From a virus (taxonomy: Duplodnaviria > Caudoviricetes), in the IMG/VR virus record IMGVR_UViG_3300045001_000016, positions 36,850-100,849 of that record: 64,000 nt of DNA; one strand, given 5' to 3'. The notes under the pieces are model-generated. The model made no database searches. It was not told the DNA's origin and saw only the letters and a list, made by a program, of their open reading frames with translations. Numbering within the stretch: the stretch's first letter is position 1; every line of letters starts with the position of its first letter. A program made the position numbers and the translations under genes. Shown piece after piece: positions 13,571-55,931 of the stretch.

Positions 13571-13675
13571 TTAGATGGAGGGGATGTTCAGCGTGAGCTG
13601 GATCACGGGCAGCGTCGTCGAGCTGGAGAGGCTCGTCGCCACGAGACGGGCGACGAACGTGCCGGGTGCGGCCAT
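13571..13675 (-). CDS. 34-aa small protein (MAAPGTFVARLVATSLSSSTTLPVIQLTLNIPSI)
   Basis: Own translation; its stop codon abuts the SD of the next gene and its ATG directly abuts the mini-element end. Confidence 0.5.
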   Translation of the reverse strand: MAAPGTFVARLVATSLSSSTTLPVIQLTLNIPSI

Positions 13676-14075
13676 AGAATTACCTCCAGGGGACTGTCGC
13701 CTTTAGGTGACAGCGGAATGGAGCGTGCTGCCACGTCGGCGACGAGCAGCGCACTTCTGTTGCAATCTGCCAACAACCCCGACACTGTGCGATACTGAAA
13801 CCGGAGTACCGGCGCGGAGATGGCGGCAACGGCGCTCGGGCGTGCCCGAGATGCCTCTGGCTTGGGGTGTGCCCCACGCGGACGGGAAACATGCTCGTGG
13901 GGGCAAGGCGAGGGGTAACCCTCCCGGTGCGTAGTGGCTTGCGCCGTCCGCCGCGAGCGGGCCGTTGTGGTCTAGCCAGCCCGTCAGCCGGCCTGATGTC
14001 TGGCATGACCGGCGCCTCCTTGCGTGGCGCCGGATCGCACGGACAAGCTGGTGGCTTTAGCCATCGGTTGCTGAC
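13676..14075 (+). mobile_element. Non-autonomous IS200/IS605 mini-element A1 containing a TnpB-type omegaRNA-like structured RNA
   Basis: Subterminal TTTA-loop hairpins at both ends; right end ...TTGCTGAC; CCAT at the left junction; related copy at 54405-54824. Confidence 0.8.
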
Positions 14076-14085
14076 AGGGTCAGGT

Positions 14086-14116
14086 TCCTAGGCTCCTAGG
14101 CTCCTAGGCTCCTAGG
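14086..14116. repeat. 8-bp tandem repeat TCCTAGGC x4
   Basis: Read directly; on the minus strand each unit contains TAG and AGGA(G). Confidence 0.9.
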
Positions 14117-14880
14117 ATGAGGGCGGGCTGCACCAGGTCGCCTGGTGCCCGCATTCTGTAGCAGGCATTCTGATTGAGGGCCAGCAACGGGATGTCGTAG
14201 GCCAGGGGGAAGGGATCGCTGGCGCCGGCCGGGGCCGCCTTGATCTCGGCGGCCACGATATGTCCAAAGTCGCTGGCCACCGTAAAGCCCATGGTCACGC
14301 TGCCGCCGGGCGTGGCGTAGTAGGAGCCGCCGATGTTGTCGCCCGAGGTATTGCTGCTGACGTTGAGCTTGTACGACTGGGTACTCGGGCTGTCGGCGCT
14401 GGTAATGCTGGTGCCCGTGGCACAGACGGCCAGGACGATACTGCCCGCCGTGGTGCCGGCCAGGGTCACCTGCTCGTCGGTAATGTTGGAGCTGTTGTCC
14501 TCGTGCTTGCCGTGCACGCCGATGGGCGTGCTCTGGTTCGCGCCTTTGAGCGCGATGGCCCCGCCCAGGATATCGGGCGCCCCGGCACTGGAGGCGATGG
14601 TCACCGTGACGGTGTTGCTGCCGGTCGGCGGGCTGAGCAGGTAATAGAGGCCCAGCTGCGTGTGGAAGTTCTGGTCCGTCGTATAGCCGTCGATGAAGGT
14701 GAGCGCCTGCCCGCCGTAGGTCACGCTGCTGATGCTGCTTGAGGCCTGGGTGGCGTTGGTGCTGATCGCGCCGACGATGAGGATGTCGCCGGCCGTGTTG
14801 GTAAAGGACCAGGAGAGCGTGCCCGCGTTGGCGTGGTGCGCCGCCCCGCTCGCTTCCTGGCTATCAACAACAAGCGCCAT
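14104..14880 (-). CDS. Putative virion accessory beta-sandwich protein
   Basis: 258 aa, 'SSVTYGGQALT', 'YYLLSPPTGSNTVTVT'; two similar halves. Confidence 0.65.
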   Translation of the reverse strand: MALVVDSQEASGAAHHANAGTLSWSFTNTAGDILIVGAISTNATQASSSISSVTYGGQALTFIDGYTTDQNFHTQLGLYYLLSPPTGSNTVTVTIASSAGAPDILGGAIALKGANQSTPIGVHGKHEDNSSNITDEQVTLAGTTAGSIVLAVCATGTSITSADSPSTQSYKLNVSSNTSGDNIGGSYYATPGGSVTMGFTVASDFGHIVAAEIKAAPAGASDPFPLAYDIPLLALNQNACYRMRAPGDLVQPALILGA

Positions 14881-14883
14881 GGG

Positions 14884-15240
14884 CTAGCTCTCCTGACCAG
14901 GCGTTAGGCGTCGGGCTACGGCTTGTGGCAAAGCCGCAAGCTCGTCAGGCGTCCGTAAGGCGTCACGTGCGGCCGTCATAGAGGCCAGCCGCTGGCGCAG
15001 GTCATCCCGTTCGTGTTCCACCTGCTTGATGTGCTCGTGCAACGCTGTTCTCTCTGAATCCATATGCCGGACCTGCGCCTCGAGCTCGGCCACGCGTTTG
15101 CGCAGGCTACTGAGTTCCTGGTCCTTGACGGCGATCTGGGCCTGTAAGGCCGGGATCTGCGCCTCCAGGTTGGCCAGCCGGGTGGCCGTGTCCTGGTGCG
15201 CGGTCCCCGACGTTTCCTGGATGGCGACAGAGAGGGGCAT
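14884..15240 (-). CDS. Coiled-coil protein
   Basis: Heptad pattern over ~80 aa. Confidence 0.65.
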   Translation of the reverse strand: MPLSVAIQETSGTAHQDTATRLANLEAQIPALQAQIAVKDQELSSLRKRVAELEAQVRHMDSERTALHEHIKQVEHERDDLRQRLASMTAARDALRTPDELAALPQAVARRLTPGQES

Positions 15241-15244
15241 CGGG

Positions 15245-15946
15245 CTACGTCACGTCGCAAAAGACGAGGATGCCCGCTGCCGTGCCCCCGTTGACCGTCT
15301 TGCCCGCCGCGCCATAGATGGCGCACCAGGCCCAGGGCTCCCCCGATGTAAAGCTCGCGCCATTGCCAACGGCCTGGTCGCCCTGCGTCGCCGCCACCTG
15401 GCTGCCCAGGTCGGGCGAGCCAAACACGTAGATGGTGCCGCCCGATTGGTTCTGCACCTGCACCACGCCGCAGGCGCGGTTGGTCGGGTACGCCGAGGTA
15501 TTGCTGGCCGGGGGCTGGCCCGCGCCCACCGTGCCGGTATCGGCATAGCTCACGGTGCTCCCTGAGCCAATGGTGGTCAGCAGCGAGGAGGCCCCATACG
15601 ACCCAGAGGTCGTGCTGCGGTAGATCTTGTAGCCGCTGGCGTCCTTGACCTGGGTCCAGCCTAGCGTCACCTGGTTGGTGCTGGTGCCACTGGGCGGCGT
15701 GTAGCTCTGCTCGGCACCCTGCAGGGACTCGCCCTGGCTATTGGTGGCTGTCACCACGTAGTAGTAGGTGGTGCCGCCCACCAGCTGCCCGCCCGCCGTA
15801 CTGGGTGCGGAGAAGGTGTAGGAGAGCGGGGCGGCCAGTTGGGCCTGCGCCAGGTAGAAGGGGAAGATATCGTTGGTCGAGCCGCCCCCGGTCAGCGTGG
15901 TGCTGCCACCGCGCGGGGCGTTGCTGGGGTAGATGCGTGCAGGCAT
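15245..15946 (-). CDS. Fibronectin-III/Ig-like domain virion protein
   Basis: 'TYYYVVTATNSQGES', 'VTLGWTQV..ASGYKIYRSTTSG' FN3-like motifs. Confidence 0.7.
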   Translation of the reverse strand: MPARIYPSNAPRGGSTTLTGGGSTNDIFPFYLAQAQLAAPLSYTFSAPSTAGGQLVGGTTYYYVVTATNSQGESLQGAEQSYTPPSGTSTNQVTLGWTQVKDASGYKIYRSTTSGSYGASSLLTTIGSGSTVSYADTGTVGAGQPPASNTSAYPTNRACGVVQVQNQSGGTIYVFGSPDLGSQVAATQGDQAVGNGASFTSGEPWAWCAIYGAAGKTVNGGTAAGILVFCDVT

Positions 15947-15974
15947 GGGGTCGAACGTGCTCCTGCCCTAGGGG

Positions 15975-17747
15975 CTAGATCTTGTTGACGATGAACCAGT
16001 TCGCGCCATCGCTCTGGACGGTGACCGCCGAGAACGCACTGGCGAGCGTGTAGGTGCTGGCCCCATCGATGGTCCCGCCGGCCGAGGCCACCGTTGTGCT
16101 GGTGACCCCGGAGCCGTTCTTGATGGTGATGGTCTGGCTACCCAGGCCGGCGCTGGCCGCTGAGGGCAGCGTCATGGTCAGGCTCGAGTTGGTGGAGACC
16201 AGCACCATGCCGCCGAAGTCCATGCTCGAGAGCGTCGTGCTGGCCGTTAGCGTACGCTGGCCCATCTGCACGCCGCGATTGTTGCGGCTGATCGAGTGCG
16301 CGCCGAGCAGGGTCACACTGCCCTGCGAGCCATTGGGCAGGACATTACCCTCAAACGTCGTGTAGTCGGTGCTATTGTGCTCCTGCACGGAGCGCGAGAG
16401 GACGTTGCCACTGACGCGCGTGGAGGCGGTGTTGCCATCCAGGAAGATCGCCGAACCCGCGCCCCCGCCAAAGACGTTGGAGTCGATGGTGCCGTACTGC
16501 GCGAAGTTGGTGGTGCGCAGGGCGGCGTTGGGCGCCCCGGCGAAGCAGCAGCCGCGCACCGTATAATAGGTGGCCTGGCTGAGCTGGATATTGTTGCTGG
16601 CCTGCGTGCCCCCGCCCGCCGTATGGAAGTGGCACTCACTAATCGAGAGCTGGCTGATGGCGTTGCTCGTGCCATCGACGTAGATGTCCATGCCCGGCGT
16701 ATTGGCCGTGGGGTTGACGAGCGCGTCCTGCGTATTGGTGCCCGCCGTGACGTTGTTGCCGTAGAACGAGGACCCGCTGATGCGCACGTCATTGATGGCA
16801 CCGGCGGAGGCTTGCAGGTAGATGCCGTGCTGCCCGTTGGTCTCGTACTCTCCACCCACGATTTGCGTCGCGCCGCCCCTGGTCTGGAAGAAGCCGTGAT
16901 TGGTGAAGAAGTAGGGGTGGCACAGGCTGAACTTGTTCTCGTAGCCCTGGTTGTAGAACCCGAGGCGCCCGCCCAGCGCGCCCGGCGTCGCACCGGTGCC
17001 CCCGGCGGCGCGGCACAGGTGCCACTCCGAGCTAGAGACGCCGTTGTCGATGACGTAGGCGTCACGCCCACACTGGATCACGTAGCAGTTCTCGGTGTAG
17101 TTGTCGAAGAGCGTGCCGCTTTGGACGGAGTAGTGGATACCGTCGCGGGGCATCTGCTGCACGCGTAGGTCGCGCAGCGTGCAGTCGCCCCCAAAGAGGA
17201 GTATGCCATCGCCTGCGGCGTTGGTGTTGTGCACGCCGTTCAGGCCAAGGTTCGCGATGCGGCATCCGGTCACGTTCTGCGTCACGCCCCACTGCAGCAT
17301 GCAGGCGAGGCTGGCCCCGCTGGCGACGGTGAGGTAGGCGCCGCGGCGCAGGCCCATGCCGACGAGCGAGACGTAGCTGGCATCGTTCTGCAGGGGGGCC
17401 GTCAGGGTGTAGGTTCCATCACTGAGCTGGACCGTGCCGCCCGTGGCCGCACACGCGGCCAGCGCCGCGTTGATCACGGTGGCAGCATCCGTCCCAGAGA
17501 ACTCAAATGCCCCCGTCTGCGCGTTGCGCGCCAGGATGGTGCCAGAGGCGTCCTGCGCGACCACGTAGCTGGCCGGCAGACCGGTCACGGTCTCGGTCAA
17601 GAGGCCGCTAGGCGCATAGGTCGCCCAGCCCGCACTCACGTGGGCGGCGGCCTCCTCCGGGCGGATCACGCTGTAGGGCGTGCCCTTGGCGCGCACAATG
17701 TCACCGGGCCAGCGCTGCACGCCGGTATCGTAAAGCAGAGTGGACAT
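15975..17747 (-). CDS. Right-handed beta-helix (pectate-lyase-like) fibre or depolymerase
   Basis: 'INAALAACAATGGTVQLSDGTY' cap followed by repeated beta-helix rungs; C-terminal 'TLPSA...TIKN...IDGA...SDGANW' fibre domain. Confidence 0.8.
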   Translation of the reverse strand: MSTLLYDTGVQRWPGDIVRAKGTPYSVIRPEEAAAHVSAGWATYAPSGLLTETVTGLPASYVVAQDASGTILARNAQTGAFEFSGTDAATVINAALAACAATGGTVQLSDGTYTLTAPLQNDASYVSLVGMGLRRGAYLTVASGASLACMLQWGVTQNVTGCRIANLGLNGVHNTNAAGDGILLFGGDCTLRDLRVQQMPRDGIHYSVQSGTLFDNYTENCYVIQCGRDAYVIDNGVSSSEWHLCRAAGGTGATPGALGGRLGFYNQGYENKFSLCHPYFFTNHGFFQTRGGATQIVGGEYETNGQHGIYLQASAGAINDVRISGSSFYGNNVTAGTNTQDALVNPTANTPGMDIYVDGTSNAISQLSISECHFHTAGGGTQASNNIQLSQATYYTVRGCCFAGAPNAALRTTNFAQYGTIDSNVFGGGAGSAIFLDGNTASTRVSGNVLSRSVQEHNSTDYTTFEGNVLPNGSQGSVTLLGAHSISRNNRGVQMGQRTLTASTTLSSMDFGGMVLVSTNSSLTMTLPSAASAGLGSQTITIKNGSGVTSTTVASAGGTIDGASTYTLASAFSAVTVQSDGANWFIVNKI

Positions 17748-17772
17748 GGGGGGATGGGTCTCCTACGGACGA

Positions 17773-17916
17773 TTACAGAAGGGCGCCTGCGGCCAGCGCG
17801 GCGGCGCGCACGACGGGTCGCGCCAGGGACGTGATCTCCAGGACCTCCTCCACCAGGGAGACGACCTCGACTATCAGGTGCAGCACGGTGAGGGCGCGTC
17901 GTAGGAAGCGGCGCAT
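17773..17916 (-). CDS. 47-aa hydrophobic peptide
   Basis: Own translation MRRFLRRALTVLHLIVEVVSLVEEVLEITSLARPVVRAAALAAGALL; TGGAG SD. Confidence 0.45.
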   Translation of the reverse strand: MRRFLRRALTVLHLIVEVVSLVEEVLEITSLARPVVRAAALAAGALL

Positions 17917-18272
17917 AGCAGTCTCCAGATGAGTGACCGTAATTCGATTCTGAATTACGGTCAGTAGGCGAAAGTGGAGAAGGAGAAGGACAAGAAGCCA
18001 GGGTCAGCCGACTACCCAAGGGCCGGCAATGCGCCCCCCACTGATGGGGCCAGTGTCCCCTGGTCGGGAACGCTACAGGAGCGCGATCTTGGGTGCACCC
18101 TTTGCGAGGAAACAGCAGGCGTACCTAATTCCGTCGCACGCGGAGCGGCGATGGGTGACCGCTGGACGCGGCTGCCTGAAGAGGAGTAGACTGTAGGCGG
18201 GGTAAAGAACGAGCCACCACGCGTCGGAAGCGCATGATGGCTCTAGCCACAGGACACGTAGGAGGTGTCACC

Positions 18273-19112
18273 ATGGCCCTAGGTAAAGACTACCATCAAC
18301 TCCCCATGTTTGGCGAGCCGCCCACCGTCCCCGTGCGCGCTGATGTCGGGGGCGTGGTGCGCGAAGTCGTCGTCTATCGCGGTCGCGCGTACGTGCGGTA
18401 TCCAGAGAGCGCGAATCGCTCACTGCGCGCGTATTTCTCCTGCACCTACAGTCGGGGTGGCGGCGAGCGACAGCGCCACTTCTTGCACCGCGACCTGTGG
18501 GAGGACGTGTATGGGCCGATTCCGCCCAAGCACCACGTACACCACATTAATGAGGACCCGCTTGACAATCGCCTTGAAAATCTGGCCTGCAAGAGCGGGC
18601 GTGATCACCTCTCCGACCATGGACACGCGCCCTGGCGTCAGGAATTATCCCGACAACAGGCTGAGCGTATGCGCCCGCTCACCAAGGAGTGGCATGGCTC
18701 AGAGGAGGGGCGTGCATGGCATCGCGAGCACGGCAGGGACGTCCACGAGAGCATGCCTCTCGTGACCCTCACCTGTGCGCAGTGTGGTACCCTTTTCCAG
18801 ACGAAGCAGCTTCGCGCAACCTATGCGCTCTTCTGTTCCAATGCGTGCAAGTCCGCAGCGCGTCGAGCAAGCGGAGTAGACGACGAAGATCGTGCGTGCA
18901 TCGTCTGCGGTACGATGTTCCGCATCAATCGCTACCGCAAAACCCTCACCTGCTCTGTTGCATGTGCCCGCGCGCTGACCGATCAGCCCATCGAGAAGAT
19001 CTGCGAGGAGTGCGGCACACTGTATCAAGGATCGCCGCGCTATGGGCGCTTTTGCTCACGATCTTGCGGCTGGCAATCGTGGCGCAGGAGGCGCAATGAT
19101 GGCCAACACTAG
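18273..19112 (+). CDS. HNH homing endonuclease with multiple CxxC...CS..C Zn fingers
   Basis: 'LHRDLWEDVYGPIPPKHHVHHINEDPLDNRLENL'; AGGAGG SD before ATG at 18273. Confidence 0.9.
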   Translation: MALGKDYHQLPMFGEPPTVPVRADVGGVVREVVVYRGRAYVRYPESANRSLRAYFSCTYSRGGGERQRHFLHRDLWEDVYGPIPPKHHVHHINEDPLDNRLENLACKSGRDHLSDHGHAPWRQELSRQQAERMRPLTKEWHGSEEGRAWHREHGRDVHESMPLVTLTCAQCGTLFQTKQLRATYALFCSNACKSAARRASGVDDEDRACIVCGTMFRINRYRKTLTCSVACARALTDQPIEKICEECGTLYQGSPRYGRFCSRSCGWQSWRRRRNDGQH

Positions 19113-20590
19113 ATGAGAGAAATCTTCGCGGGACCCCTTACGAGGACATTTGTGCAATAGCGTAATGCGTCTGCGTGGTGATCCGCCCGCTTCAGAACCA
19201 CATCGGAGACCGTGCCGCCGATTTCGCGGTAGGCGTAGGCGGCCATCTCGGTGGGGATGTAGTCGAGGCGATCCGAGAAGATCATCGTGGGTCGCTTGGG
19301 GCCATCGGGGTCTCTGGGGTCAATGGGACGCTGGCCAGCGAGCGCTCCGTAGACCAGGCCAATACCCTGCTTCACATCCTTGATGGCCTTGATCGCCGGC
19401 AGGCCCGCACGGCGCAAGGCGTCGATCGCGTCACTATCCCAGTCGGCGGCCAGCTTGGTAAATGCATAGGTCCGACTCATGGAGCGCGCGATCTTGACCC
19501 AGGTCAGTTGATGGGGGTCTTCGGCCACGACGGGGATCTCGGCCCCATAGTAGCCATCGATCTCCACGATGGTCCCGTCCTTGGCTATGCCGGCGATGAC
19601 CAGGCAGCCGGGCTGGGACATGTTGAAGTCGATGCCCGCCGCGACATAGTCCAGGGTGAAGGTCCCGTAGCGCTTGGTGGTGACGGTGCGCGTGCGCGGG
19701 TCGTAGCGCAGGCTCTCCATGTGCGTGCCCCGGTCGAAGACGGGGTAGACGAGGGCCTGGTTCGCGGCAAACGCCTCGGTATAGACAGCGGGGTATTCGC
19801 GCTTGCGCTGGGTCTCGCTGTAGTCAGCGGTCTCGCGCGCCAGCCACTCAGGAGTACGCCCCGGATGGGCAAACCAGGGGATGAAGACGGCGCGCAACTT
19901 GCCTTTGCGCTGCATGGCCTGGCCGTAGAGATCGTGGAAGAACCTCATGGGCCCCTGCGACGTGGAGGCGATGATGAGTTGACCGCCGGGACCGTCAACA
20001 GTAGGCTTGACCGCGCTATATAACGCCGCCAAGTCAGCCACGTAGTCGGCCTCGTCAATGAAGACCAAGCTTGCCGTGTCTGAACGCCCCGCCCCCTCGG
20101 TGGCGGCCATCGACTCAACCTTGGAGCCATTTCCAAAGGAGATCGTCTGGTTGTTCCAGATGTCGGCAGGTGGACAGAACTCCTTCATCCACGCGGGCAG
20201 GCGCTCATAGGTCGCCTTGATGCGTTCCAGGAGCTTGGTGGCCTCGGGCTCACGTTTGCTCAGGAGCAGGATGTAGGCGTTGCTTTTGTACATGGCCCGC
20301 CAGAGCACATAGGCGCAGACCGTGGTCGTGATGCCCAACTGCCGCGCCTTGAGGATGCAGAAGTGCTCCTCGTTCTTCTGGAACGCCGCGATGAGTTGCT
20401 GCTGGAACTTCCAGAGGACGAAGGGTTCGTAGAGCCGGCTGCCGTCATCGTTGCGGATCAGAATCTTGCAGTAGGTCTCGATCCAGTAGATGGCGCTCTG
20501 TGCGGAGAGGGCTAGCTCGATCGCAATCTGCTCGGGTGAGAGTGCCTGGTCTAGGTTCTGGGGTTCTTGCTTGGGTCGGCGGGCTGGCAT
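19109..20590 (-). CDS. terL: Terminase large subunit
   Basis: 'ILKARQLGIT' Walker A, 'VFIDEAD' Walker B, 'ASTSQG', RNase-H-like 'GIDF...DHHADALRY'. Confidence 0.93.
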   Translation of the reverse strand: MPARRPKQEPQNLDQALSPEQIAIELALSAQSAIYWIETYCKILIRNDDGSRLYEPFVLWKFQQQLIAAFQKNEEHFCILKARQLGITTTVCAYVLWRAMYKSNAYILLLSKREPEATKLLERIKATYERLPAWMKEFCPPADIWNNQTISFGNGSKVESMAATEGAGRSDTASLVFIDEADYVADLAALYSAVKPTVDGPGGQLIIASTSQGPMRFFHDLYGQAMQRKGKLRAVFIPWFAHPGRTPEWLARETADYSETQRKREYPAVYTEAFAANQALVYPVFDRGTHMESLRYDPRTRTVTTKRYGTFTLDYVAAGIDFNMSQPGCLVIAGIAKDGTIVEIDGYYGAEIPVVAEDPHQLTWVKIARSMSRTYAFTKLAADWDSDAIDALRRAGLPAIKAIKDVKQGIGLVYGALAGQRPIDPRDPDGPKRPTMIFSDRLDYIPTEMAAYAYREIGGTVSDVVLKRADHHADALRYCTNVLVRGPAKISLI

Positions 20591-20637
20591 AGGGGGTCTC
20601 TCGTCCAGTGGTGCCGGGTCAGGGGAGGGAGGATGCG

Positions 20638-36290: not shown

Positions 36291-37522
36291 AACGAGAAAG
36301 GAGTTATCCCCCACCACGGCCACCTGTCCACCTAAAACAGCCCGTTATCCCCATCACACACACGAAAACGGAGCAACCCCATGCCAAGAACCATTCGCAA
36401 CTTCTGGGTACGCACGCGCGTCGATGGCCGCGCCACCAGCGACGAAAGCGGTCCGCCCTCCAAAGATGGCGGCTTTCGGACCACGATCTTCTACCGCTTT
36501 GACGGCGCGATCGCGCCTGTGCCCCTGGAGATCGAGGGGCACGTCCGCTCAGATGGACGCCTGGTGATCGAGGTGCGCGACGATGGACGCGTCGTGCACC
36601 GCATCGATAGCATCCGCTAGCACCCCATCACCCACAGCGTACACCACACACACCACACGCACGAAGGAGATAGACCCATGTCCTGGCTTGCCCTCTGCAT
36701 CTGGATGATCGTCGCCATCGTCGGCGCACACATGGCCGGCGGCAAAGGACGCCGCCGCCCGCTCTGGTTCGCCCTGTGCTTTTGCTTCGGGTTATGCGCG
36801 CTGTGCGTGCTGGCGTGCCTCTCGCCGGTGAGCGCGTAAGCAATGGCGAGCCACGTGTTGCCCGCGCACCGCTGGACGCGCCACGAGCGCAGGACCATCC
36901 TGCGCATCCACCGCCTCTACCGCACGGCGCCCGATGACCCGGTGGTCAAAGCCCTGATGGCCGGGGTTGAATTGGCGCGCGAGATGCGCCGGGGCACGAC
37001 CACGCGCGACCATGCGCGTGGCATCCTGGCCTGCGTCAGCCTACAGGCACAGACAGCCGGCTACTATCGGCTCGACTAGTCTCACTAGGGAGAAGAGCAT
37101 GCCCATGACGCAGACCTACTACGTCTTCCTGGTCTACGAGGAGGGCGCGCAGTACCAACTCTCGATCTTCGCCTACGATGCGCAGAGCGGCCTTGACTTC
37201 GACGCTGCCTTCCTTGATGCATGCCTGGACCTGCTGGAGCGCTATCCCGTCGAGGACACACCCCTGCACGGGACCACGTTCGCGACGTGCTTCGGCGGGT
37301 GCTGCGAGCGCTTCGAGGAAGGGCACGACGACGACATACTAGCCGGCTACGGCCTGCGACGCGCCACCCAGATGGCAGCGCTGCCCGGACCAGTGTTGGA
37401 GTGGTACGACGCGCCGCTGCCGCGCGACGAGAGGGGGTGATTGAGGCCAGGGACCACGAACGACGACCCATCACGAGAGCAGCCCACCATGCACACACAG
37501 CAGAGCAAGGAGAGCGTCATCC

Positions 37523-40852: not shown

Positions 40853-42216
40853 GTGACCATCACCACGACCAGAAGGTGCGATGATTCTGCCGCTGGGTCA
40901 GGGGACCCCGACACGGGCCAGCCCAGCCCGGATAAGCATGGTGCGTGCGGAATTATGATCGCGCTGGATGCTTGTTCCGCAGGCGCAGGAGTGCCAGCGT
41001 TCATCCAGGTCTTTGGGGACACTGGCCCCGCAACCGCTACACTCCTGGCTCGTGCCTGCTGGGTTAACCGCCACCACAACACGCCCAGCGTCTGCCGCTT
41101 TGTACGTGAGGATGGTGAGGAATTGTGCCCAACCAGCATCATGAATCGACTTGTTCAGACCGCCCTTGGCGCTCGCGCCGTTGGGAAGATAACACCCCTC
41201 ATCGTCCTGGCGGGGCGCGGGCCGCCGCACCATATTATGCACCTGCAAGCGCTCAACGGCCAGCGCCCCTGCGCGGGCGATCAGGTCGCAGGCCACCTTG
41301 TGGTGAAAGTCGCGCCGTTGGTCACGTGTTTTGCGGTGCGCCTTGGCGACCAGCGTTCTGGCCCGCAGGCTATTGTTGCTGCCACGTGCCTTGCGCGCCA
41401 CGGCATGCTGGCGGCGTGCGATGGTCGCCTCTGCGCGCCGGAAGTGGCGGGGGTTGGGGATGTGCTCGCCCGTCGAGAGCGTGGCGAAATGCTCCAGGCC
41501 CACGTCGATCCCGATAGCGGGCAAATCTGGAGCTTCTTGCACGGAGATATCGACAAGACAAGAGAAGCAGACATACCACTGGTCGGCGCTGCGTCGCACC
41601 GTGACGGTCTTGACCGTGCCCTCTAGAGGGCGATGCCAGCGCACCTTGAGCGCCCCAATAGCCCGTAGGTGCAGCCGACCGTCATTCACCTTCCATCCAT
41701 TTTGCTGGAAGGTGAATGAGTCGTAGCGTGCGCGCCCACGGAAACGTGGATACCCGGCTTTATGTCCGGCACGCACGCGACGGAAGAAACCGGCAAAGGC
41801 CAGATCCACGCGCTTTAGGACATCGCGCACCATCTGCGCGTCGAGGAGACGGTACTCAGGACGTACCTCCTTGATAGCAGGCAACTGGCGCGCTTGGTCA
41901 TAGTAGTTGATGCGCTGGTGGCGCATGCGCCACGCCTCACGGCGCTCTTCGAGTGCGGCGTTGTAGAGTTCGCGGCACCTACCCAGTATATGCTGCATTG
42001 CCGCATCTTGCGCGTGCGTGGGATAGATCCGGTACTTGAATGCGCGGTGGACGGTGCGCGTGCCGGCCATAGAGAGGAGCCTCCGCAATCTCCGGGCGTC
42101 GTGTCACGGAGCGCCAGGGGAGACGCGAAGGCATAGAAAAACGCCCCAACCTGGAAAGCTCCGTGACATCTCCATCATACTCCATGAGAGGGTGGCTTGT
42201 CTAGCCCCCTCACGGA
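40853..42216 (-). mobile_element. IS200/IS605-family (IS1341-like) tnpB-only element
   Basis: tnpB ORF; right-end bulged hairpin ending ...GGTCAC at 40853; left-end hairpin at ~42180-42217 next to TTGAC. Left boundary is approximate. Confidence 0.75.
40898..42070 (-). CDS. tnpB: RNA-guided endonuclease TnpB with an intact RuvC D-E-D triad
   Basis: 'AFKYRIYPT', 'GIDVG', 'VERL', 'TSQECSGCG', 'RDHNSA'. Confidence 0.95.
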   Translation of the reverse strand: MAGTRTVHRAFKYRIYPTHAQDAAMQHILGRCRELYNAALEERREAWRMRHQRINYYDQARQLPAIKEVRPEYRLLDAQMVRDVLKRVDLAFAGFFRRVRAGHKAGYPRFRGRARYDSFTFQQNGWKVNDGRLHLRAIGALKVRWHRPLEGTVKTVTVRRSADQWYVCFSCLVDISVQEAPDLPAIGIDVGLEHFATLSTGEHIPNPRHFRRAEATIARRQHAVARKARGSNNSLRARTLVAKAHRKTRDQRRDFHHKVACDLIARAGALAVERLQVHNMVRRPAPRQDDEGCYLPNGASAKGGLNKSIHDAGWAQFLTILTYKAADAGRVVVAVNPAGTSQECSGCGASVPKDLDERWHSCACGTSIQRDHNSARTMLIRAGLARVGVP

Positions 42217-47883: not shown

Positions 47884-48004
47884 AGGAATCGATTATACTG
47901 GCGACGTGGGTAGGACTGCGACCCCTACCCACGCCTGCGGTCTATCGTGAAAGGAGCACGACGACCATGGCCACAGCATACCCCACGGACCGGGGAGCGC
48001 GTCC

Positions 48005-49081
48005 ATGAGCGCCCCGCATCTGCGTTCAGACGCACCATTAGTGAGGCACCTCGCGACCCGTTACGATCCCCTCATCGCGCGGGCCTGGCAGGACCTGCCC
48101 CTGATCCAGATGCCCCCCAAAGCGCTGGAGACTCGTCCCCTGCGCGACGACCCCGACGCACAGATGCGCGGCTTTACGGAGCGCCCCTTCGAGGACTTCG
48201 TGCTCGACCTGGACGCGCGGGGGTACACGATCTTCGACGTCGAGCGCGCGGGCCTGGGCCACTACTGGTTCCGCGTCTCGGGCATCTGGCGCTTCCAGGA
48301 GACCTACCCCCGCGATCGCCCCTGGTGGCAGGGCCTACGCATCACCACGAAAGAGGTACGCCAGCAGATGGGCCTGGACCCAGGCCGCCCGGAGCACCCA
48401 AATCCGGCTGATCACGATTCAGGCCCAGCTCCCCAGGTCGCGGGCGCGCGCCGCATCGGCGTGGTCGACTCGCGCCGGCCACTAGGGGTCCCGACGGACT
48501 ACCGGCGGGGCGAAGCGGTGGTCATCGAATGTTGGGCGCTGCACCCGGATGTCGGCCACTTCCTGCCGGTGCCCGAGACCACGGTCATCGAGCCGACGAG
48601 CGGGCGCTCGCTCGTGCTGCAGACGCCGCTCGAGCGTGCCACCTACGCGCGCTGTACGCCCGAGGAGCAGAAGATGATGGTCAACGAGCAGAAGCGCCAC
48701 GTGCTCTTCTGCAAGGTGCTGCTCTACCACCTCGCCCTGCGCACCGACTACCTGGTGGAGGAGCGGCCCGCGCAGCAACCGCGCAAGCCCCGCCCGGACA
48801 AAGACAAGAAGCCGTGGTGCTACATGTATTTGCCACGGGTCATCCTGTTGCCGCCACAGCACCTAGCCGCGCCCAGGACGCCCTCGAGCGCGCCCCAGGG
48901 GTCGCCCCCCGAGGAAGGCAGCCATATGGGCAAGCGCCCCCACCAGCGCCGCAGCCACTGGCGCACGCTGCGTAGCGAGCGCTACGGGCAGAATAGGGGT
49001 CGGCGCATCCGCGTGCGTGAGGCGTGGATTGGCCCCCGTGAGTTCTGCATGAATGGTAATGTGTACCGGGTCATCGATTAG
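48005..49081 (+). CDS. Hypothetical phage protein with a C-terminal PHxRRxHWR motif
   Basis: 358 aa; 'KRPHQRRSHWR...VREAWIG'. Confidence 0.7.
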   Translation: MSAPHLRSDAPLVRHLATRYDPLIARAWQDLPLIQMPPKALETRPLRDDPDAQMRGFTERPFEDFVLDLDARGYTIFDVERAGLGHYWFRVSGIWRFQETYPRDRPWWQGLRITTKEVRQQMGLDPGRPEHPNPADHDSGPAPQVAGARRIGVVDSRRPLGVPTDYRRGEAVVIECWALHPDVGHFLPVPETTVIEPTSGRSLVLQTPLERATYARCTPEEQKMMVNEQKRHVLFCKVLLYHLALRTDYLVEERPAQQPRKPRPDKDKKPWCYMYLPRVILLPPQHLAAPRTPSSAPQGSPPEEGSHMGKRPHQRRSHWRTLRSERYGQNRGRRIRVREAWIGPREFCMNGNVYRVID

Positions 49082-49096
49082 AGGAGGGCTTCACCT

Positions 49097-49678
49097 ATGA
49101 CAAAGGCAACGATGACGGGCATCGTTCTGACGGCCGCCGTCCTGGACGTTCTGGCCAACTGGCTCGCCGCACACTACCTGATCAGTGTGGGGTGGCTGAT
49201 CTTTCCGGCTGGCACGCTCGCTTTTGCGCTCAGTTTTACCCTATACGATGCCCTGCGCCGCTTCGGCGGACTGGGGCCCACGCTGACGGCGGTGTCCCTC
49301 GGGTTCGCCTGCTCGGTCGCGGCGGGCTTGTGGGTTGGCGGCGGCATCACGCGCATCGCCGTCGCCGGGGTCATCGCGCTGGCCTGCTCCTCGCTCACCG
49401 ATCTGGCGGCGCAGTCCGTGACGCTGCGTCTGCCGATCTGGCGCTACGTCCTCACCAGTAACGCGCTCAGCCTGTTTGTGGACAGCCTTGTCTTCGTCGG
49501 CATCGCCTTTGCCGCTCTACCGACCGATGTGCGCCTGCGCCTGGTGGTCGGGCAGTATGCGGCCAAGATCGCGATGAGCGTCCTGAGCATCCCCCTCGTC
49601 TACCTGGCTCGGCACAGGCTGCGCGCCCCCGGCCCGGGCGCCGACTCCCGTAGGGACACGGGCGCCCGCCTGGCCTGA
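49097..49678 (+). CDS. VUT (YhhQ/Vut_1) family queuosine-precursor transporter-like membrane protein
   Basis: Several TM segments; 'LANW', 'PAGT..F...F.L.D', 'SN..S..VDS.VF..IAF', 'GQY.AK'. Confidence 0.82.
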   Translation: MTKATMTGIVLTAAVLDVLANWLAAHYLISVGWLIFPAGTLAFALSFTLYDALRRFGGLGPTLTAVSLGFACSVAAGLWVGGGITRIAVAGVIALACSSLTDLAAQSVTLRLPIWRYVLTSNALSLFVDSLVFVGIAFAALPTDVRLRLVVGQYAAKIAMSVLSIPLVYLARHRLRAPGPGADSRRDTGARLA

Positions 49679-49684
49679 GCGACG

Positions 49685-50476
49685 ATGCGGATGATGCAGA
49701 CGATGACGCCGTTCACGTTCTACCTAGGCACGCACCACGTGGACTGGCTCGCCCGCGCGGGCGTGCCGCTGATGGTCTCGCGCCGTCGCCTGGCCGGGCG
49801 CAAGACGCTCCCCCACGCCATCAGCCCCTGGATGCTCGATTCGGGCGGCTATTCCGAACTCAGCCTGTTCGGATGCTGGACCATCACGCCCGCGCGGTAC
49901 GCGCGGCTGGCCGACCTCTATCGCGTCGAGGTCGGCCACCTGGCCTACGCCGCGCCGCAGGACTGGATGTGCGAACCACACATCGTCCTGAAAACGGGCC
50001 TCTCCATTGCAGAGCATATGCGGCGCACCGTCCAGAACTACATGGACCTCCGCGCGTTGGCTCCGCATCTACCGTGGATGCCCGTGCTGCAAGGCTTCGC
50101 CCTGGACGACTACCTACGCTGCCTGGACCTCTATACCGCGGCCGGCATTGACCTATGGGCGGTGCCGTGCGTCGGTGTTGGCACGCTGTGCCGCCGGCAG
50201 GGGACCCAGGAGGCGCGCGCGATCCTGGCGCGTCTGTATGGGCTGGGCCTGCCGCTGCACGGCTTCGGGTTCAAAATCACGGGGTTGCCAGACGCGATGG
50301 GCGCGCTGCGCTCGGCTGATTCGATGGCCTGGAGTTACGCCGCGCGGCGCGAGCCACCGCTGCCGGGCTGCGTGCGTCACAAGTGCTGTGCCAACTGCCT
50401 GCGCTATGCGCTGCGCTGGAGGGAGCGCGTGCTCGGTCTGCAGGCGCGCCCCGTGCAGTTGCCCCTGCCGCTATGA
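49685..50476 (+). CDS. Queuine tRNA-ribosyltransferase (TGT)/DpdA-like protein
   Basis: 'LDSGGYS', 'PQDWMCEP', 'PVLQG', 'VGVG..CRR', 'LHGFG.K', 'SADSMAW'. Confidence 0.8.
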   Translation: MRMMQTMTPFTFYLGTHHVDWLARAGVPLMVSRRRLAGRKTLPHAISPWMLDSGGYSELSLFGCWTITPARYARLADLYRVEVGHLAYAAPQDWMCEPHIVLKTGLSIAEHMRRTVQNYMDLRALAPHLPWMPVLQGFALDDYLRCLDLYTAAGIDLWAVPCVGVGTLCRRQGTQEARAILARLYGLGLPLHGFGFKITGLPDAMGALRSADSMAWSYAARREPPLPGCVRHKCCANCLRYALRWRERVLGLQARPVQLPLPL

Positions 50477-50597
50477 TGGGGAGGTGAACAAAAGAGCGAC
50501 GCCGCGCCACCTCCCTGGACCCCGCGAGCCCCCTTTCACGGTACCCAGGACAAGAACAGCGCGGCGCGCACCAGACCATGAAGGAGCAGACCCGCGC

Positions 50598-51158
50598 ATG
50601 AAGCGCACAACCTACGCGGCGCTACCTGTATGCCTAGCAGTAGCACTCTCCGTACCACCCGCAGCCGCGCACGCCGTCGGGGCGCAGGGTCGGCCCGCGC
50701 CCCTGCACGTCAAAGAGGCTGAAGTGATCCTGCAATCCAGCAGCGTGCAGGTCCAGCGCTGCTCGGAAACACTGCCTCCCCTGGACAGTGACTTTGGCAT
50801 CCTGGCCCAGGACTTTGATGCCGGTGTAGCACCCAACGCGGCGGGCTTGCGCGCCGATGCCCGGGCCACGCAGCAGACCTGCGGGGCGGCCAGCGTAAAA
50901 ATCGCCCGCATCCCCATCCCGTCCGCGCTACGACGGGTGGCAGCGCTGCGCCGCCTCGTCGTCCAGTTAGTCCAGATGACCCAGGACTTTCGGGCGGCGG
51001 GGGGGCACCTGGGCGTGGTGGCGGATGACTACGATCAGGGGACGCTGGGCACGGTGCAGGCGGAGTACAGCGCGGCCCTGGCCGCCTGGAACGGGGCGGG
51101 GGCCCACGCGCGCGACGCGGGGGTGGCGCTAACGGTCCTGCGCCAGGAGGGATTTTGA
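50598..51158 (+). CDS. Secreted helical protein
   Basis: Signal-peptide-like 'MKRTTYAALPVCLAVALSVPPAAAHA'; AAGGAG SD. Confidence 0.6.
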   Translation: MKRTTYAALPVCLAVALSVPPAAAHAVGAQGRPAPLHVKEAEVILQSSSVQVQRCSETLPPLDSDFGILAQDFDAGVAPNAAGLRADARATQQTCGAASVKIARIPIPSALRRVAALRRLVVQLVQMTQDFRAAGGHLGVVADDYDQGTLGTVQAEYSAALAAWNGAGAHARDAGVALTVLRQEGF

Positions 51159-52040
51159 CCCGCCAGGAGAAAGGAACAGAGAAGACTGGAAAGGACGAGG
51201 CCCCCACCATGAGCACCGCCCACGAACGCCACCACGCGGACGCGCTGGCCGCCCAGATGTCGCTGCCTGACCCGACGCTCGGAGAACGCGCCTACGTGTT
51301 GCGTTGCTATACCTGCGAGCGCACGGACGCAGGCGAGGGCGACGGCGCAGATATGGCTCACCTCTTAGCCCTGCTCAGCTACGCCGAGGGCTGGAGAGCG
51401 CGCAGGGGCAAGGTGTTTTGTCCCCGTTGCGCGCAGGGCGAGTAACCACTAACCACACACACACACCACCCACAGAAGGAGACCCCCCATGCGAGACCCC
51501 GAAGAGATCGAGGCCATCGTCGGAGTCCTGCGCGCGATGAACGCCGCGTGCGCCGACCTGGCCAGCTTCGCGCGGCAAGACGCCGTGGAAACGATCATTA
51601 ACAACTGGCAGGACGCCCTGCACACGGGGCATGACCTGGCCGCCCTGATCATCGACATCGACGACACCATCGCGGAATTGGCGCCGTATCGCGCCAACGT
51701 GTGCGCGCACTTTGGACTCGTGCGCAAGGAGGGCGTCGCATGAGCGAGCACGTCGACCGTGCCGTGCTGGATGAGCTGGCCGAGCGGGTGCAGGTCTACC
51801 ACCGCACGGAGTACTACGCCGTTTGCTCTTCCTGTGACTATGAGGAAGAGGATAGCGACTGGGAGGATGTGGGCGAGGCGGCGCGCACGCTCTATCTGCG
51901 CCATTGGCGCGTGCTAGGAGATAGCCTGCTCTGCCCCGATTGCGCCGAAGAGGCCGAGCAGATGCGTCCTGCAGTCCAGGAGTTCGTGCGCATCCTGGAC
52001 ACGGACGCCACAGACACACACGAGAGGGAGAACACGACCG

Positions 52041-52346
52041 ATGAATAGCTATAAGATGACCCAGGTGATTGACGGTCTTCGGTATGACACGGAGAAAGCC
52101 ACGTTAATCGCCCACGATTGTTACCATGATGGCCGCAATTTCGAGCGTCATGGGCGCAATCGGTATCTCTACCGCACCCCAAACGGACGCTTCTTCATCC
52201 AGCATCTGACCATGTGGCAAGGAGAACGGGATCGCCTGGAGGCCATCAGCGAAGAGGACGCGGTGCTTTTCTACGAGGGGTCGCTGACCGAGCACATGCT
52301 TGAATGGGATGAGGCGTTCCCCTCACGCGAGTTACGCGACGCCTAG
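52041..52346 (+). CDS. Conserved-looking hypothetical protein
   Basis: 'IDGLRYDTEKA..IA....LYRT.NGRFF'. Confidence 0.7.
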   Translation: MNSYKMTQVIDGLRYDTEKATLIAHDCYHDGRNFERHGRNRYLYRTPNGRFFIQHLTMWQGERDRLEAISEEDAVLFYEGSLTEHMLEWDEAFPSRELRDA

Positions 52347-54248
52347 CGAGATGACAGGGACAGCAGCGCCGGTCGTGGCCCATCAACACGATCGGCGCTG
52401 CCTCGCCCATGAGGAGGTGGATAGGCCGTACGCCCCACGGGTGCACCCCAGGGACATCGGTCTGTACGCCTGGAGAATACCACACACCAAGAGAGGAGAG
52501 CAGTAGGGTGGCAGGCCACATTCAGAAGGCATTTCGCGATCCCATCGTGGTGGCCAAGGACCCCCTTGGCCACGTGCGCGTGGTGCGCAGCACAGACGAC
52601 CCAGCACAGACGCGGGTCGAGGAGTGGATTGGCCAGGACGCCCCAGGCCAGCAGGACGGCCCTGACCCAAAGCGACCGGCGTGGCGGGCCTACTCGCGCA
52701 GCGCGTCGTGGATGCGCAGCGCGATTGGCGGCCTGGAGCGCATCGTCCTGGAGCAGGAGCGGCGCATCGCTGAGCTAGAAGCGCAGTACAGCGGGCTGGA
52801 GCGGGCCATGACACACGCGAGGATGCACCCGCGCGCTGAGGCGCATGCGGAGCCGGAGCACGCAGCAGATCCCCTGGACCTGCCGGGTGACCCAAGCGAT
52901 CCGCGCACCCCGGTCGCCTGGGCCATCCTGGAGGCCATCAAGGGACGCAACAACGCGGAGGTGGAGCGCCTCTCGGGCCTCTTGTGGGCCTTGCAGGAAC
53001 GCATCGCTGCGCGCACACACGAAGGAGAGCAAGAGACATGAGCACGGGCCTAGAGTGCGCCATCGTCGAGTGGGAGCCAAGGCGCTGGATGCTGGTCCTG
53101 CAGAACTGGGACTGCCCGCGCGGAGCCTTTGACTGGCGCGAGTGGGCGACGAGTTATGGCTTCTTCTTGAGCGAGGAAGAGGCTGAGGAGTTCTTACGCC
53201 AACACTTCGCCAATCCGGGCGGGCACGTGATCCTCACGCATGAGGACGTGCAGCAGTGGTCCGATCCAGCATGGTCAACCCTCGCCCGTACGGCGGAACG
53301 CAATCGCGGGGAGGTGGAGCGCACCAGCCTGGGTGGAGGCGTCTGGCTGCGCCTTGGTCACGCGCCCCGTCATGATCGGCGCTAATGCATAGCACACAAA
53401 GGAGAAGGAGAGAGAGGAATGATGGTCGCAACCTGTCCCTACTGCGGGTCGTCCCGCCTGCGCGTCCACTTCACGGAGCGCCGCGCCGCAGGCGTGCAGG
53501 TCGAGAACGGAGACCTCTCCTACGACCTGGACGTGCTGGACGAGCTGGTCGATACCATTGGCGACGAGGAGTACTTCTGCGATGACTGCGGGGCCTGCCA
53601 GATCAGCCCGCGCATCACGACGAAAGAGGAGCACACCCGATGATGCAGATTGACGCCCTCTACCGAGACTACGTCCACAAATGGCAGGTCCGTGCCGCAT
53701 TGGCCGAGCTATCCCAGGAGTACGCGTGGGTGGACGGCCTGCCTGAGCGTATCGATGAGATCGCCTCTGCCCTAGGGCTACTTGAGGATGAGGGAGAAGA
53801 GGAGGAGGAGGAGGAGGAGGACGATGAAGCATGTCCTGACCATTGACATCACCGGCGGCATCGGCACCATCGAGGGGGCCCCCGCCGAGGTGTGCGCGGG
53901 CGACCATATCCTGATCCGGGTGATCGATCGACCACCCGAGACGTACCCAGACTTTCCAGCGGGGCTGGAACAAGACGATCAAGGGCGATTTGTGCTCCTC
54001 AACGACGAACGTGAGATCGCCGTCGTCAATACGGCGATGCCCCTGCGCGTGGCGGCGCGCCAGCTCTGCGACCTGATCCTGCCCCCGCAGCGTAAGCGTG
54101 ACATCCTGCACAACCCCTACGAGGAGGTGCAGGCGGCACTCACCATCACGGACCCACTGGTGGAGGAGTGGACGGAGATGGACCTTGACGCGGTGAGTGC
54201 GGCGGCGGTCCATCTGGACGCGCTGCTCGCCCTCAACGAAGGACTGGA

Positions 54249-54950
54249 ATGATGGACCCCATCGAGAGTTTTGAGGCAACGGAGATGGCCTTCACGATCC
54301 TGTCCGATCCCGACGCCGAGGGCTACATTCAGGAGATGGCGCAGGGCGACGGCCTCACCTGGGACCAGGCCACGCGCACCTACGTACAGAACCGCCTGGT
54401 CGCCGTCAGCAACCGTCGCCTAAAGACGACGGCTTGTCCGTGCGATCCGGCACCACGCAAGGAGGCGACGGTCATGCCAGACATCAGGCCGGCTGACGGG
54501 TTGGCTAGACCACAACGACCCGCCTGGAGCGGACGGCACAAGCCACTACGCGCCGGATGCCTTGCGACACACCTTGCCCCTCCAGGCATGTTTCCCGTCC
54601 GCGTGGCGGGTGAGCGAACCCGCGTGAGCGAGTACACCCCAGGCCAGAGGCATCTCCCGCCACGCTGGGCAGGAGCGCCGTTGCCGCCATGTCCGCGTCG
54701 GTACTCCACTTTCAGTATCGCACCGTCCCGACGTTGTTGGCAGATTGCGACAGAAGCGTGCTGCTCGTCGCAGCACGCTCCATTCCTCTGGCGCCTAAAG
54801 GCGCCAGTCCCCTGGAGGTTTTCCATGGAAGACGAGCGGCGGGAGGAGGCCCTGGCGGACGCCGACCTGCGTGCGGTCGCTGCGGCCGAGGCGTGGGCCG
54901 CGCGCGTCATGGCGGCCATCGACTGGGACCTGATCCTGGAGGGAGACTGA
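54249..54950 (+). CDS. Small phage gene interrupted in-frame by mini-element A2
   Basis: Removing 54405-54824 gives ...QNRLVA|MEDERREE...; the frame is also open across the insert. Confidence 0.65.
   Translation: MMDPIESFEATEMAFTILSDPDAEGYIQEMAQGDGLTWDQATRTYVQNRLVAVSNRRLKTTACPCDPAPRKEATVMPDIRPADGLARPQRPAWSGRHKPLRAGCLATHLAPPGMFPVRVAGERTRVSEYTPGQRHLPPRWAGAPLPPCPRRYSTFSIAPSRRCWQIATEACCSSQHAPFLWRLKAPVPWRFSMEDERREEALADADLRAVAAAEAWAARVMAAIDWDLILEGD
54405..54824 (-). mobile_element. Non-autonomous IS200/IS605 mini-element A2 (relative of A1)
   Basis: Colinear with 13676-14075 in reverse complement; same CCAT junction motif and GCTGAC end. Confidence 0.8.
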
Positions 54951-54970
54951 TGACGAGCGATGCCCCTGTG

Positions 54971-55401
54971 GTCAGGTACCCCATGGCTAAAGCCAGGGGC
55001 TTGTACCCCCGGCTGTGGCCACGAGTTTTGGGGAGCCCTGCGCCATCGACCCAACGACCTCCCGGCACGGACCTCTGAGCGGCCTGACAGAGGGCGGCAC
55101 TGCCCCTAGCGCCCGTAGACGCCGCCGCTCCACGAGGACGGAGGGGAACCATGCATGCCTGACGTTCCCGGCAGATTTCTCGGCCCTAACCGCCTCGCCG
55201 CAGGATCGTCCTGCTGACCCACCACGCGCAGCCACTCCGGCAAACCGTTGTCCGGCCACGGGGCCGGTGCCTTACGGAGTCGCTGACTCCATCATAACAC
55301 GGATAGAAGGGAACTGACACAATGCAACAGAAGATGTCCATCGGACGCCTATCCGCTTTCCTCCCCACGGCTAAAGCCGGGGGCCTCCAGCGGAGCTTGT
55401 G
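54971..55401 (-). mobile_element. Non-autonomous IS200/IS605 mini-element B (second family)
   Basis: Both ends carry CCCC.(C/T)GGCTAAAGCC.GGGG hairpins; right end ...TACCTGAC; TCAC at the left junction; removal restores MTSDAPV|VILLNEY... Confidence 0.8.
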
Positions 55402-55598
55402 GTGATCCTGCTGAACGAGTACTCCTCTGAGGTGCAGGTGGAGGAGGCCCCCGCCTGGCTGGAGATCGAGGTGCGCGTCATCGCCGAGTACACCCTGGGC
55501 GAGTGGCGCGAGCAGCACGCGCGTGGCAACGACGTGCATCAGCACCCCGATGGCTATTGGTACCTGCGGCACCGCTTCCTGGGGCGGGCACGCCCCAG

Positions 55599-55931
55599 AT
55601 GAGCCTAGGGCTGGGCGAGAGGTTGCGCCGGGCGCGCAAAGCCGTCGGCCTCTCCCAGGAGGAGGCGTCAGCCCGCTCGGGCGTCTCGCGCGAGATGATT
55701 TCCTATTACGAGACGGGCGCGCGCACGCCGGGGCTGCGCGCGCTCTATCGCCTGGCCACCGTCTACGGCGTACCCCTGGATGACCTGGCCGCCGAGGACG
55801 GCGCAGGCGAGGATCGCTCAATCTGGAGCCGGCCCCGCGTCCCGACCCAGGGGAGCGCGCGCTCCTGGGGCGCTGGCGCACGCTGCGCGCCGCCGAGAGA
55901 AAGGAGGTGCTACGCTACCTGGACTACCTAG
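55599..55931 (+). CDS. XRE-family HTH regulator, apparently frameshifted in its C-terminal part
   Basis: 'LGERLRRARKAVGLSQEEA....GVSR..IS.YE.G.R.P....L..LA..YGV.LD.L'. Confidence 0.85.
   Translation: MSLGLGERLRRARKAVGLSQEEASARSGVSREMISYYETGARTPGLRALYRLATVYGVPLDDLAAEDGAGEDRSIWSRPRVPTQGSARSWGAGARCAPPRERRCYATWTT

Follow-up and report, generated by a model that had tools for sequence, protein, structure and literature searches.

Gene-less IS200/IS605 elements in a phage genome abut start codons and may carry translation signals for the genes that they precede

We analyzed a 64,000-nt stretch of phage DNA (the window; positions 36,850 to 100,849 of the 100,849-nt IMG/VR virus record IMGVR_UViG_3300045001_000016) that contains three short gene-less insertions, here called mini-elements A1, A2 and B, with a fourth copy, A4, lying outside the window in the same record. 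We propose, with a probability of roughly 0.55, that such elements land directly before start-type codons and that their left end (LE), together with a translatable frame, lets ribosomes reach the host codon, which would make the insertion only weakly polar. The comparative signals, drawn from about 30 relatives recovered from other DNA by a pattern scan for the end motif, are strong for the family, and for the three window copies the evidence is suggestive. Throughout, the top strand is the tnpB/omegaRNA-type strand of an element, the gene strand is its opposite, and RE denotes the right end. Coordinates are collected in Table 1.

Table 1. Features of the mini-elements, their junctions and the tnpB genes of the window (window coordinates unless stated; ORF, open reading frame; TAM, target-adjacent motif)
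Feature	Position	Strand	Description
Mini-element A1	13676..14075	+	400 nt; LE at 13676, RE ends CTGAC at 14075; aligns end to end with A2, L010 and A4
A1 TAM CCAT	13672..13675	+	Reads ATGG on the - strand, start of 34-aa ORF 13574-13675
A1 extended LE hairpin	13683..13724	+	Basal helix CCTCCA/TGGAG, internal loop, 8-bp stem 13694-13713, TTTA loop
A1 extended -10-like motif TGCGATACT	13788..13796	+	~113 nt from LE
A1 RE hairpin	14052..14075	+	TGGC-TTTA-GCCA, then 12 nt ending CTGAC
A1 gene-strand open frame	13680..14087	-	135 codons across the whole of A1; AAGGAGG-N6-ATG at 14006; stop TAA 13682-13680, 4 nt before host ATG
Mini-element A2	54405..54824	-	420 nt, top strand = window - strand; stop-free, in frame inside host ORF 54249-54950
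A2 LE on gene strand	54788..54828	+	Hairpin 54788-54807, TCCCC, TGGAGG 54813-54818, spacer TTTTCC, ATGG 54825-54828
Mini-element B	54971..55401	-	Second family, same architecture; RE side begins GTCAGG at 54971; LE tip GGAG at 55392-55395
B junction GTGA	55402..55405	+	Complement of TAM TCAC; GTG in frame with host gene; TGA ends 27-aa ORF 55322-55405
B host gene	54950..55602	+	Split after codon 7: MTSDAPV before B, 67 aa after
Mini-element A4	~9980-10420 of the record (G000)		Outside the window; fourth copy
TnpB-1 gene	40898-42070	-	Full tnpB, another subfamily
TnpB-2 gene	62987-64000	+	Full tnpB, another subfamily

A1 and A2 are inverted copies with 78-85% identity, and a fifth copy of 500 nt was found in L010, an unrelated viral contig. 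B is unlike the A family in sequence and has the same layout of ends. In A1, A2, A4, B and L010, hairpins with a CTTTAG loop stand near both LE and RE in the same orientation, with compensatory stem changes between copies; terminal inverted repeats are absent from all five, and the subterminal, imperfect, same-orientation hairpins found in their place are the arrangement of IS200/IS605 elements. The LE tip lies 18 nt from its hairpin and the RE hairpin 8-12 nt from the RE end, spacings also found in IS608. Between the two ends each mini-element holds a -10-like promoter motif and about 280 nt of top-strand sequence resembling structured RNA. A two-hexamer promoter scan called no promoter at the -10-like motif of A1 (13788-13796), and B carries a sigma-70-like promoter with TG on the - strand (55320-55291). 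A tblastn search of 30 TnpB proteins against the mini-elements revealed no tnpB remnant (best E = 0.005), and Pfam gave no match for the 108-aa internal frame of A1.

The same LE adjoins TnpB genes on the opposite strand in other DNA, encoding proteins of 417 aa (L023/L044) and 374 aa (L031) with matches to the Pfam families OrfB_IS605 and Cas12f1-like_TNB. On the tnpB strand of L023 the order is CCAT, 18 nt, hairpin, TGCTATACT, tnpB, hairpin and 8 nt ending CTGAC, with TGCTATACT ahead of tnpB at the same position as the -10-like motif of A1; the RE hairpin loop holds the tnpB stop codon and the RE layout is that of A1. L023 is a single copy, with no further copies of the element in its genome. 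The RE part of A4 matches the 3' end of the tnpB element L072. Because the LE, the distance to the -10-like motif and the RE layout match L023, and because tnpB remnants were not found, we classify A1, A2, B and A4 as gene-less, non-autonomous IS200/IS605 elements of the type called PATEs, and on the same comparison they derive from TnpB-only (IS1341-like) insertion sequences. The original prediction had described three elements lacking tnpA and tnpB at the positions of Table 1 and had assigned them to IS200/IS605; all three are there, the tblastn and Pfam searches found no genes in them, and their ends are common to TnpB-carrying relatives. As a separate observation, L046 and L031 have the same downstream flank and the same 3' half of the LE hairpin; their divergence begins within the loop and suggests that recombination took place, or that the assembly broke, at this hairpin.

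On the gene strand, the junctions read GGAGG, 7 nt, ATGG in A1 (ATG at 13675-13673, with GGAGG as the complement of 13683-13687); GGAGG, 6 nt, ATGG in A2 (54825); and GGAG, 6 nt, GTGA in B (55402). All three junction codons are in frame with the ORF behind them, and deleting 420 nt (A2) or 431 nt (B) restores the interrupted ORFs in frame. In the wider family, LE is followed by ATGG, that is by CCAT on the top strand, in 36/36 distinct junctions. One identical element was seen with three different flanks, which diverge right after ATGG. In the complete phage G002 the flank of one insertion is present without the element; because this site keeps its ATGG, the motif is read as target DNA corresponding to a TAM of CCAT. 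The flanks of the window copies show no target duplication. The elements integrate on the 3' side of their TAM, which is CCAT in the A family and TCAC in the B family, and duplicate no target sequence. Because the TAM adjoins LE, the LE abuts ATGG or GTGA on the complementary strand, and wherever the junction ATG is the start codon of a gene the element is necessarily antisense to that gene. The TAM read on the element strand is the complement of ATGG, so antisense orientation and the abutting ATG were counted as one fact and not as two. The corresponding claims of the original prediction were all borne out: an in-frame ATG or GTG at each end could be read directly from the sequence, a Shine-Dalgarno (SD)-like GGAG(G) precedes it by the predicted 6-7 nt, the antisense orientation holds for 4/4 copies as a result of TAM geometry, and insertion 3' of a TAM without duplication agrees with the 36 junctions and with G002.

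The site in G002 (= L194) was compared with L061, a 1.7-kb TnpB element. The two are identical from ATGG onward, and on the RE side G002 has 672 nt of unrelated sequence, so that this empty site is clean on the LE side only, with the RE side replaced; the difference could have arisen by insertion together with loss of neighboring DNA, or by mosaic exchange. For A2 and B, no relatives of the neighborhood were present in viral contigs from which an empty site could be read, and the B host gene occurs in one other contig only, with a 451-nt gap there too. For A1 no empty site was found, the relatives of the locus differing by more than the element.

We examined what kind of ATG the elements adjoin. 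At least 12 of the 36 junction ATGs are true gene starts, compared with an expectation of about 3%, the fraction of ATGG sites in this phage that are gene starts (p ~1e-7). PHROG profiles align from the N-terminus of a portal protein, an endolysin, a spanin-like protein, a large terminase subunit, an aldo-keto reductase-like protein and two proteins of unknown function, and one further docked gene encodes a signal peptide at its N-terminus. An alternative test, whether the ATG is followed by an ORF of 100 aa or more, was uninformative in GC-rich DNA (33% observed and 23% baseline) and was replaced by the N-terminus evidence. The window copies alone are weak evidence (antisense 4/4, intragenic in frame 2/2), and the family-wide sample is far from chance. 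Comparison thus shows that surviving copies in phage genomes sit preferentially at gene start codons, and the coincidence of TAMs with coding-strand starts exceeds chance in the comparison that the original prediction had called for.

The surroundings of the window copies are as follows. A2 lies at Met53 of a 93-codon ORF, in frame and stop-free. The native start of the B host gene, at 54950, has a strong SD of its own and an ATGA overlap with the preceding gene. The 34-aa ORF downstream of A1 has a third-position GC content of 0.94. This ORF and its 18-nt trailer (13556-13675, - strand) are absent from the two nearest relatives, where the spacers are 8-48 nt; the trailer ends AAGGAG-N13-ATGG at a 154-aa gene, and the stretch might be what is left of an earlier insertion. 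On the other side of A1 (14077-14152), a 258-aa protein continues 15 aa beyond the ...YRM end of its homologues in L195 and L197, and the extension then runs into a tandem array of four 8-nt units (CCTAGGAG), which puts a TAG in each of the three frames immediately ahead of the A1 RE.

The SD-like motif at the LE was then considered across the family. GGAG, GAGG or AGGA is present on the gene strand in 27 of 30 distinct LE types, and it occupies one of two positions: the tip, 5-10 nt from the ATG, in 9 types (including all window copies), or directly before the basal helix in 19, with one type having both. The complementary motif, counted in the same two positions as a control, occurs once and not at all, respectively. 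Where the SD abuts the helix, as in these 19 LE types, the folded hairpin would be predicted to bring the SD near the ATG. In phage T4, genes 25 and 38 have a split ribosome-binding site (RBS) of this kind, in which a hairpin between SD and start codon brings both into working distance. The 19 relatives resemble these sites, whereas the T4 sites are fixed gene leaders and the window copies belong to the contiguous tip type. We had initially read GGAGG as a mere structural by-product and revised this after the census of SD positions in the 30 LE types; the pattern is not easily accounted for by structure alone.

Units consisting of the LE by itself were also seen. On the reverse strand of L086, two 68-nt solo LE units (299-367 and 832-900), with the rest of the element absent, carry GGGAGGAG right before the hairpin, and the ATG behind each of them starts a lysis-type phage gene, which is spanin-like in one case and encodes an M23 endolysin in the other.

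We next turn to the open frames on the gene strand. A4, like A1 (Table 1), has one frame open over the whole element, and both stop (TAA or TAG) 4 nt before the ATG. A2 has the same internal ATG as A1, at 54474, fused in frame to the host ATG. In B, a 27-aa ORF (55322-55405) with its own SD-like motif ends in a TGA that overlaps the host GTG, and in L010 the ORF is 36 aa long, likewise has an SD-like motif of its own, and ends 4 nt ahead of the host ATG. Among TnpB-carrying relatives, L023, L056, L081 and L125 have antisense frames of 359-547 codons whose stop lies 2-10 nt ahead of the docked ATG or shares bases with it (TGATG). Four tnpB genes of relatives contain zero TTA, CTA and TCA codons (about 3-5 each expected), and the tnpB genes of three other relatives, one of them at 40% GC, have too few, and synonymous-codon shuffles seldom yield open frames like theirs (P = 0.001-0.004). 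Comparison shows, then, that an open gene-strand frame is retained in many elements, where it overlaps the ATG or ends 2-10 nt ahead of it, and an avoidance of antisense stop codons in the relatives' tnpB genes is statistically supported. No terminator-like sites were detected in the elements. In addition, L010 holds at 7080-7140 a 19-nt unit repeated three times, each with AGGAG-N8-ATG on the gene strand, one of which starts the 36-aa frame described above.

Taken together, we favor the following sequence of events. Host transcripts would read through the element, as we infer because intrinsic terminators were not detected. Ribosomes would translate the antisense frame and melt the LE hairpin, terminate beside the freed GGAGG, and re-initiate at the host codon, and the insertion would therefore be weakly polar. 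The top strand would yield an omegaRNA-like RNA, with TnpB needed in trans.

The main rival holds that these are ordinary PATE-type elements, in which the ATG is merely the complement of the TAM, GGAGG is a helix arm of the LE serving TnpA recognition, and the copies at gene starts are those that purifying selection has spared in a compact genome, with the affected genes being dispensable or poorly expressed. We consider this by-product of TAM geometry, LE structure and survivorship less likely than re-initiation. The following observations speak for it or weigh against re-initiation. The TGGAGG hexamer pairs with a partner across the hairpin, and the basal helix covaries freely, TGGAGG being one of at least 14 sequence variants. 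GGAGG could therefore exist for structural reasons alone, since it is the 3' arm of this covarying helix, and fold prediction places it in a base-paired, and so sequestered, state in the mRNA of A1, L010 and B. The association between having a tip SD and lying at a gene start is only weak (Fisher p = 0.03-0.12), and relatives without a tip SD dock at gene starts too. Regarding the open frames, those of L010 and B are short (36 and 27 aa); the chance that a GC-rich element of 400 nt is open from end to end is 3-5% per frame, and open frames are common in 66% GC DNA; the top strand of A2 also has a stop-free frame; and the internal SD and ATG of A1 and A2 are missing from L010. Substitutions between A1 and A2 fall 22/13/22 by codon position, so that their frame is not under protein selection and the internal frame lacks a coding signal. 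Both A2 and B interrupt ORFs, and the two nearest relatives of the A1 locus have neither A1 nor the 34-aa ORF. Finally, no match to Y1_Tnp was found in the 100.8-kb record, and a host-encoded TnpA would be required for mobilization.

What the by-product explanation leaves unexplained is the purine-rich, gene-strand SD in 27 of the 30 LE types, placed in two suitable and nearly mutually exclusive positions with its complement almost absent, as well as the depletion of antisense stops in the tnpB of relatives, which extends to the element at 40% GC. Several parts of the original prediction have to be adjusted in this light. Its portable translation (re)initiation cassette agrees with the SD census and the stop avoidance and is set back by the location of GGAGG in a covarying, predicted paired helix. 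An internal SD and ATG with a frame running up to or into the junction codon exists in A1, A2 and B, as had been said; the A1/A2 start is absent from L010, and its frame has no coding signature. The idea that insertions are silent is weakened: A2 and B lie inside genes and so are not silent insertions, splitting the genes, and the 34-aa ORF that is the putative target gene of A1 is missing from the two nearest relatives.

A further alternative is that the motif acts on the top strand, where it reads CCTCC and could serve as an anti-SD that folds onto the tnpB RBS in transcripts reading in from outside. Protection against outside activation is known from the regulation of IS10, IS50 and IS200, and since CCTCC falls after the LE tip and ahead of the internal -10-like motif, only read-through transcripts would contain it. 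However, the tnpB of L023 has no obvious SD to pair with, the gene-less copies keep the motif though they lack tnpB, and an anti-SD role needs no such geometry as the constant placement of the motif at the basal helix or 5-10 nt from the ATG. We regard this role as improbable.

Structure predictions favor an RNA made from the top strand. The RNAalifold consensus of three aligned sequences (A1, A2 and L010) has an energy of -109.8 kcal/mol with a covariation term of -4.5 on the top strand, compared with -92.3 kcal/mol and +1.2 on the gene strand, and many top-strand G-U pairs correspond to C-A mismatches on the gene strand. Rfam searches of the mini-elements at the gathering threshold and at E = 10 gave no relevant match, group I and II introns included, and readings as an intron or a known RNA were dropped because of this. 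As a scaffold, the three-sequence top-strand fold together with the match of the A4 RE to the tnpB 3' end of L072 fits a putative omegaRNA-like RNA that is without an Rfam match. Of the guide RNA that had been proposed for the strand opposite the gene, the part that holds is that structured RNA is better supported there, by the consensus fold of the three sequences. The notion that self-splicing introns, or a gene-strand protein (in A2, a 233-aa fusion), make the insertions harmless has in its favor that A2 is 420 nt long, in frame and stop-free and that the A1-A2 indels measure 24, 6 and 9 nt (plus 1 nt in the tip), but it is very improbable given the absence of any Rfam family even at E = 10, the better-supported structure on the opposite strand, and the stop codon before the ATG in A1, A4 and L010. 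A protein encoded on the gene strand was itself rejected on the 22/13/22 substitutions, which show no third-position excess, the lack of a Pfam match and the missing internal start in L010.

The window has two tnpB genes of its own (Table 1), which share no nucleotide similarity with the mini-elements and show no avoidance of antisense stop codons. An inverted repeat between the two is 71% complementary, and TnpB-1 has 42% identity to the TnpB of L063/L180, whose LE has a CTTTAG hairpin. Both elements appear to abut the ATG of an opposite-strand ORF (42238 on the + strand, 62886 on the - strand). The ORF beside TnpB-2 (62593-62886, - strand) is divergent from it and encodes 98 aa that look ribbon-helix-helix-like by eye, with no match in Pfam; this ORF may belong to the insertion sequence, as an Arc-type accessory gene, and not to the phage. 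L180 (the contig of L063) similarly has a small ORF between LE and tnpB that is Arc/ribbon-helix-helix-like by eye, and IS605-family elements reportedly often carry such a protein, according to a 2026 preprint. We withdrew the statement that all six IS605-type elements of the phage lie at start codons, given that the ends of the TnpB-1 and TnpB-2 elements are not definable and that the neighboring ORF of TnpB-2 is Arc-like by eye.

PATEs, omegaRNAs and start-like target sites are known from the literature, and MIRUs provide an analogue. PATEs are gene-less IS200/IS605 elements with LE and RE hairpins, and they often retain an omegaRNA that depends on TnpB and TnpA supplied in trans (Meers et al. 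2023, PMC10055086); "RNA-only" elements with guide RNAs are thus PATEs in the published sense (PMC10055086). Like the mini-elements, they keep LE and RE hairpins, have no ORF, place the TAM beside LE and cause no target duplication (PMC10055086). The mini-elements described here differ from that account in being in phage, docked at start codons and equipped with an outward SD-like motif; the text of PMC10055086 contains "start codon" 0 times and describes no start-codon docking, outward RBS or antisense open frames. IS605B/ISC elements, which are TnpB- or IscB-only and mobilized in trans by a Y1 transposase, have the targets N|ATGA, GT|GA and GT|GG (Kapitonov et al. 2016, PMC4810608), 4-bp sequences that read as start codons on one strand. 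The GTGA of B belongs to the GT|GA class, whereas the CCAT/ATGG of the A family differs, and that paper did not link its targets to start codons ("start codon" 0 times; PMC4810608).

MIRUs are small mobile repeats that insert at start codons and whose internal ORF is coupled to the gene that follows, an arrangement thought to minimize the effect on expression (PMC12548453). The sequences of A1, A2, A4, B, L010 and TnpB relatives show a layout of this kind, in which an inner frame reaches or overlaps the host start and coupling is putative; A2 and B are intragenic. The likeness is a functional analogy only, as MIRUs are unrelated in class and mobility, without Y1/TAM chemistry, omegaRNA-like RNA or TnpB relatives. 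IStrons are IS605/IS607 elements fused to a group I intron (bioRxiv 10.1101/2023.11.20.567912); they share IS200/IS605-family membership with the mini-elements and reduce insertion damage by splicing out of the sense transcript. In the mini-elements, in contrast, no intron was found, the orientation is antisense to the gene, and the gene would be rescued, if at all, during translation. Our literature searches found no paper linking IS200/IS605 ends to ribosome-binding sites or start codons.

TnpB/IS605 elements are the ancestors of Cas12 and find wide use as genome editors, and to our knowledge interpretations of their TAMs and ends have until now been confined to transposition and RNA-guided homing. 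As a tentative generalization, to which we give somewhat less than even odds, IS200/IS605 lineages with a start-complement TAM (CCAT, TCAC or TCAT) may be "operon-safe" transposons that use start codons as landing pads, carry a portable RBS in the LE, either contiguous or split by the TnpA hairpin, and keep the antisense strand of tnpB or omegaRNA stop-free for a relay of ribosomes. If so, host translation would shape the choice of TAM, the LE sequence and even tnpB codon usage, and such elements could colonize phage genomes and essential operons. An LE that acts as an RBS and an antisense strand that acts as a ribosome relay would explain how the elements persist in dense phage genomes and operons, why some TAMs mirror start codons, and why some tnpB genes have odd codon usage. 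If the proposal is right, RBSs and short ORFs annotated ahead of phage genes can also be transposon ends, and these elements would represent a natural, splicing-free way to put cargo between an RBS and a start codon.

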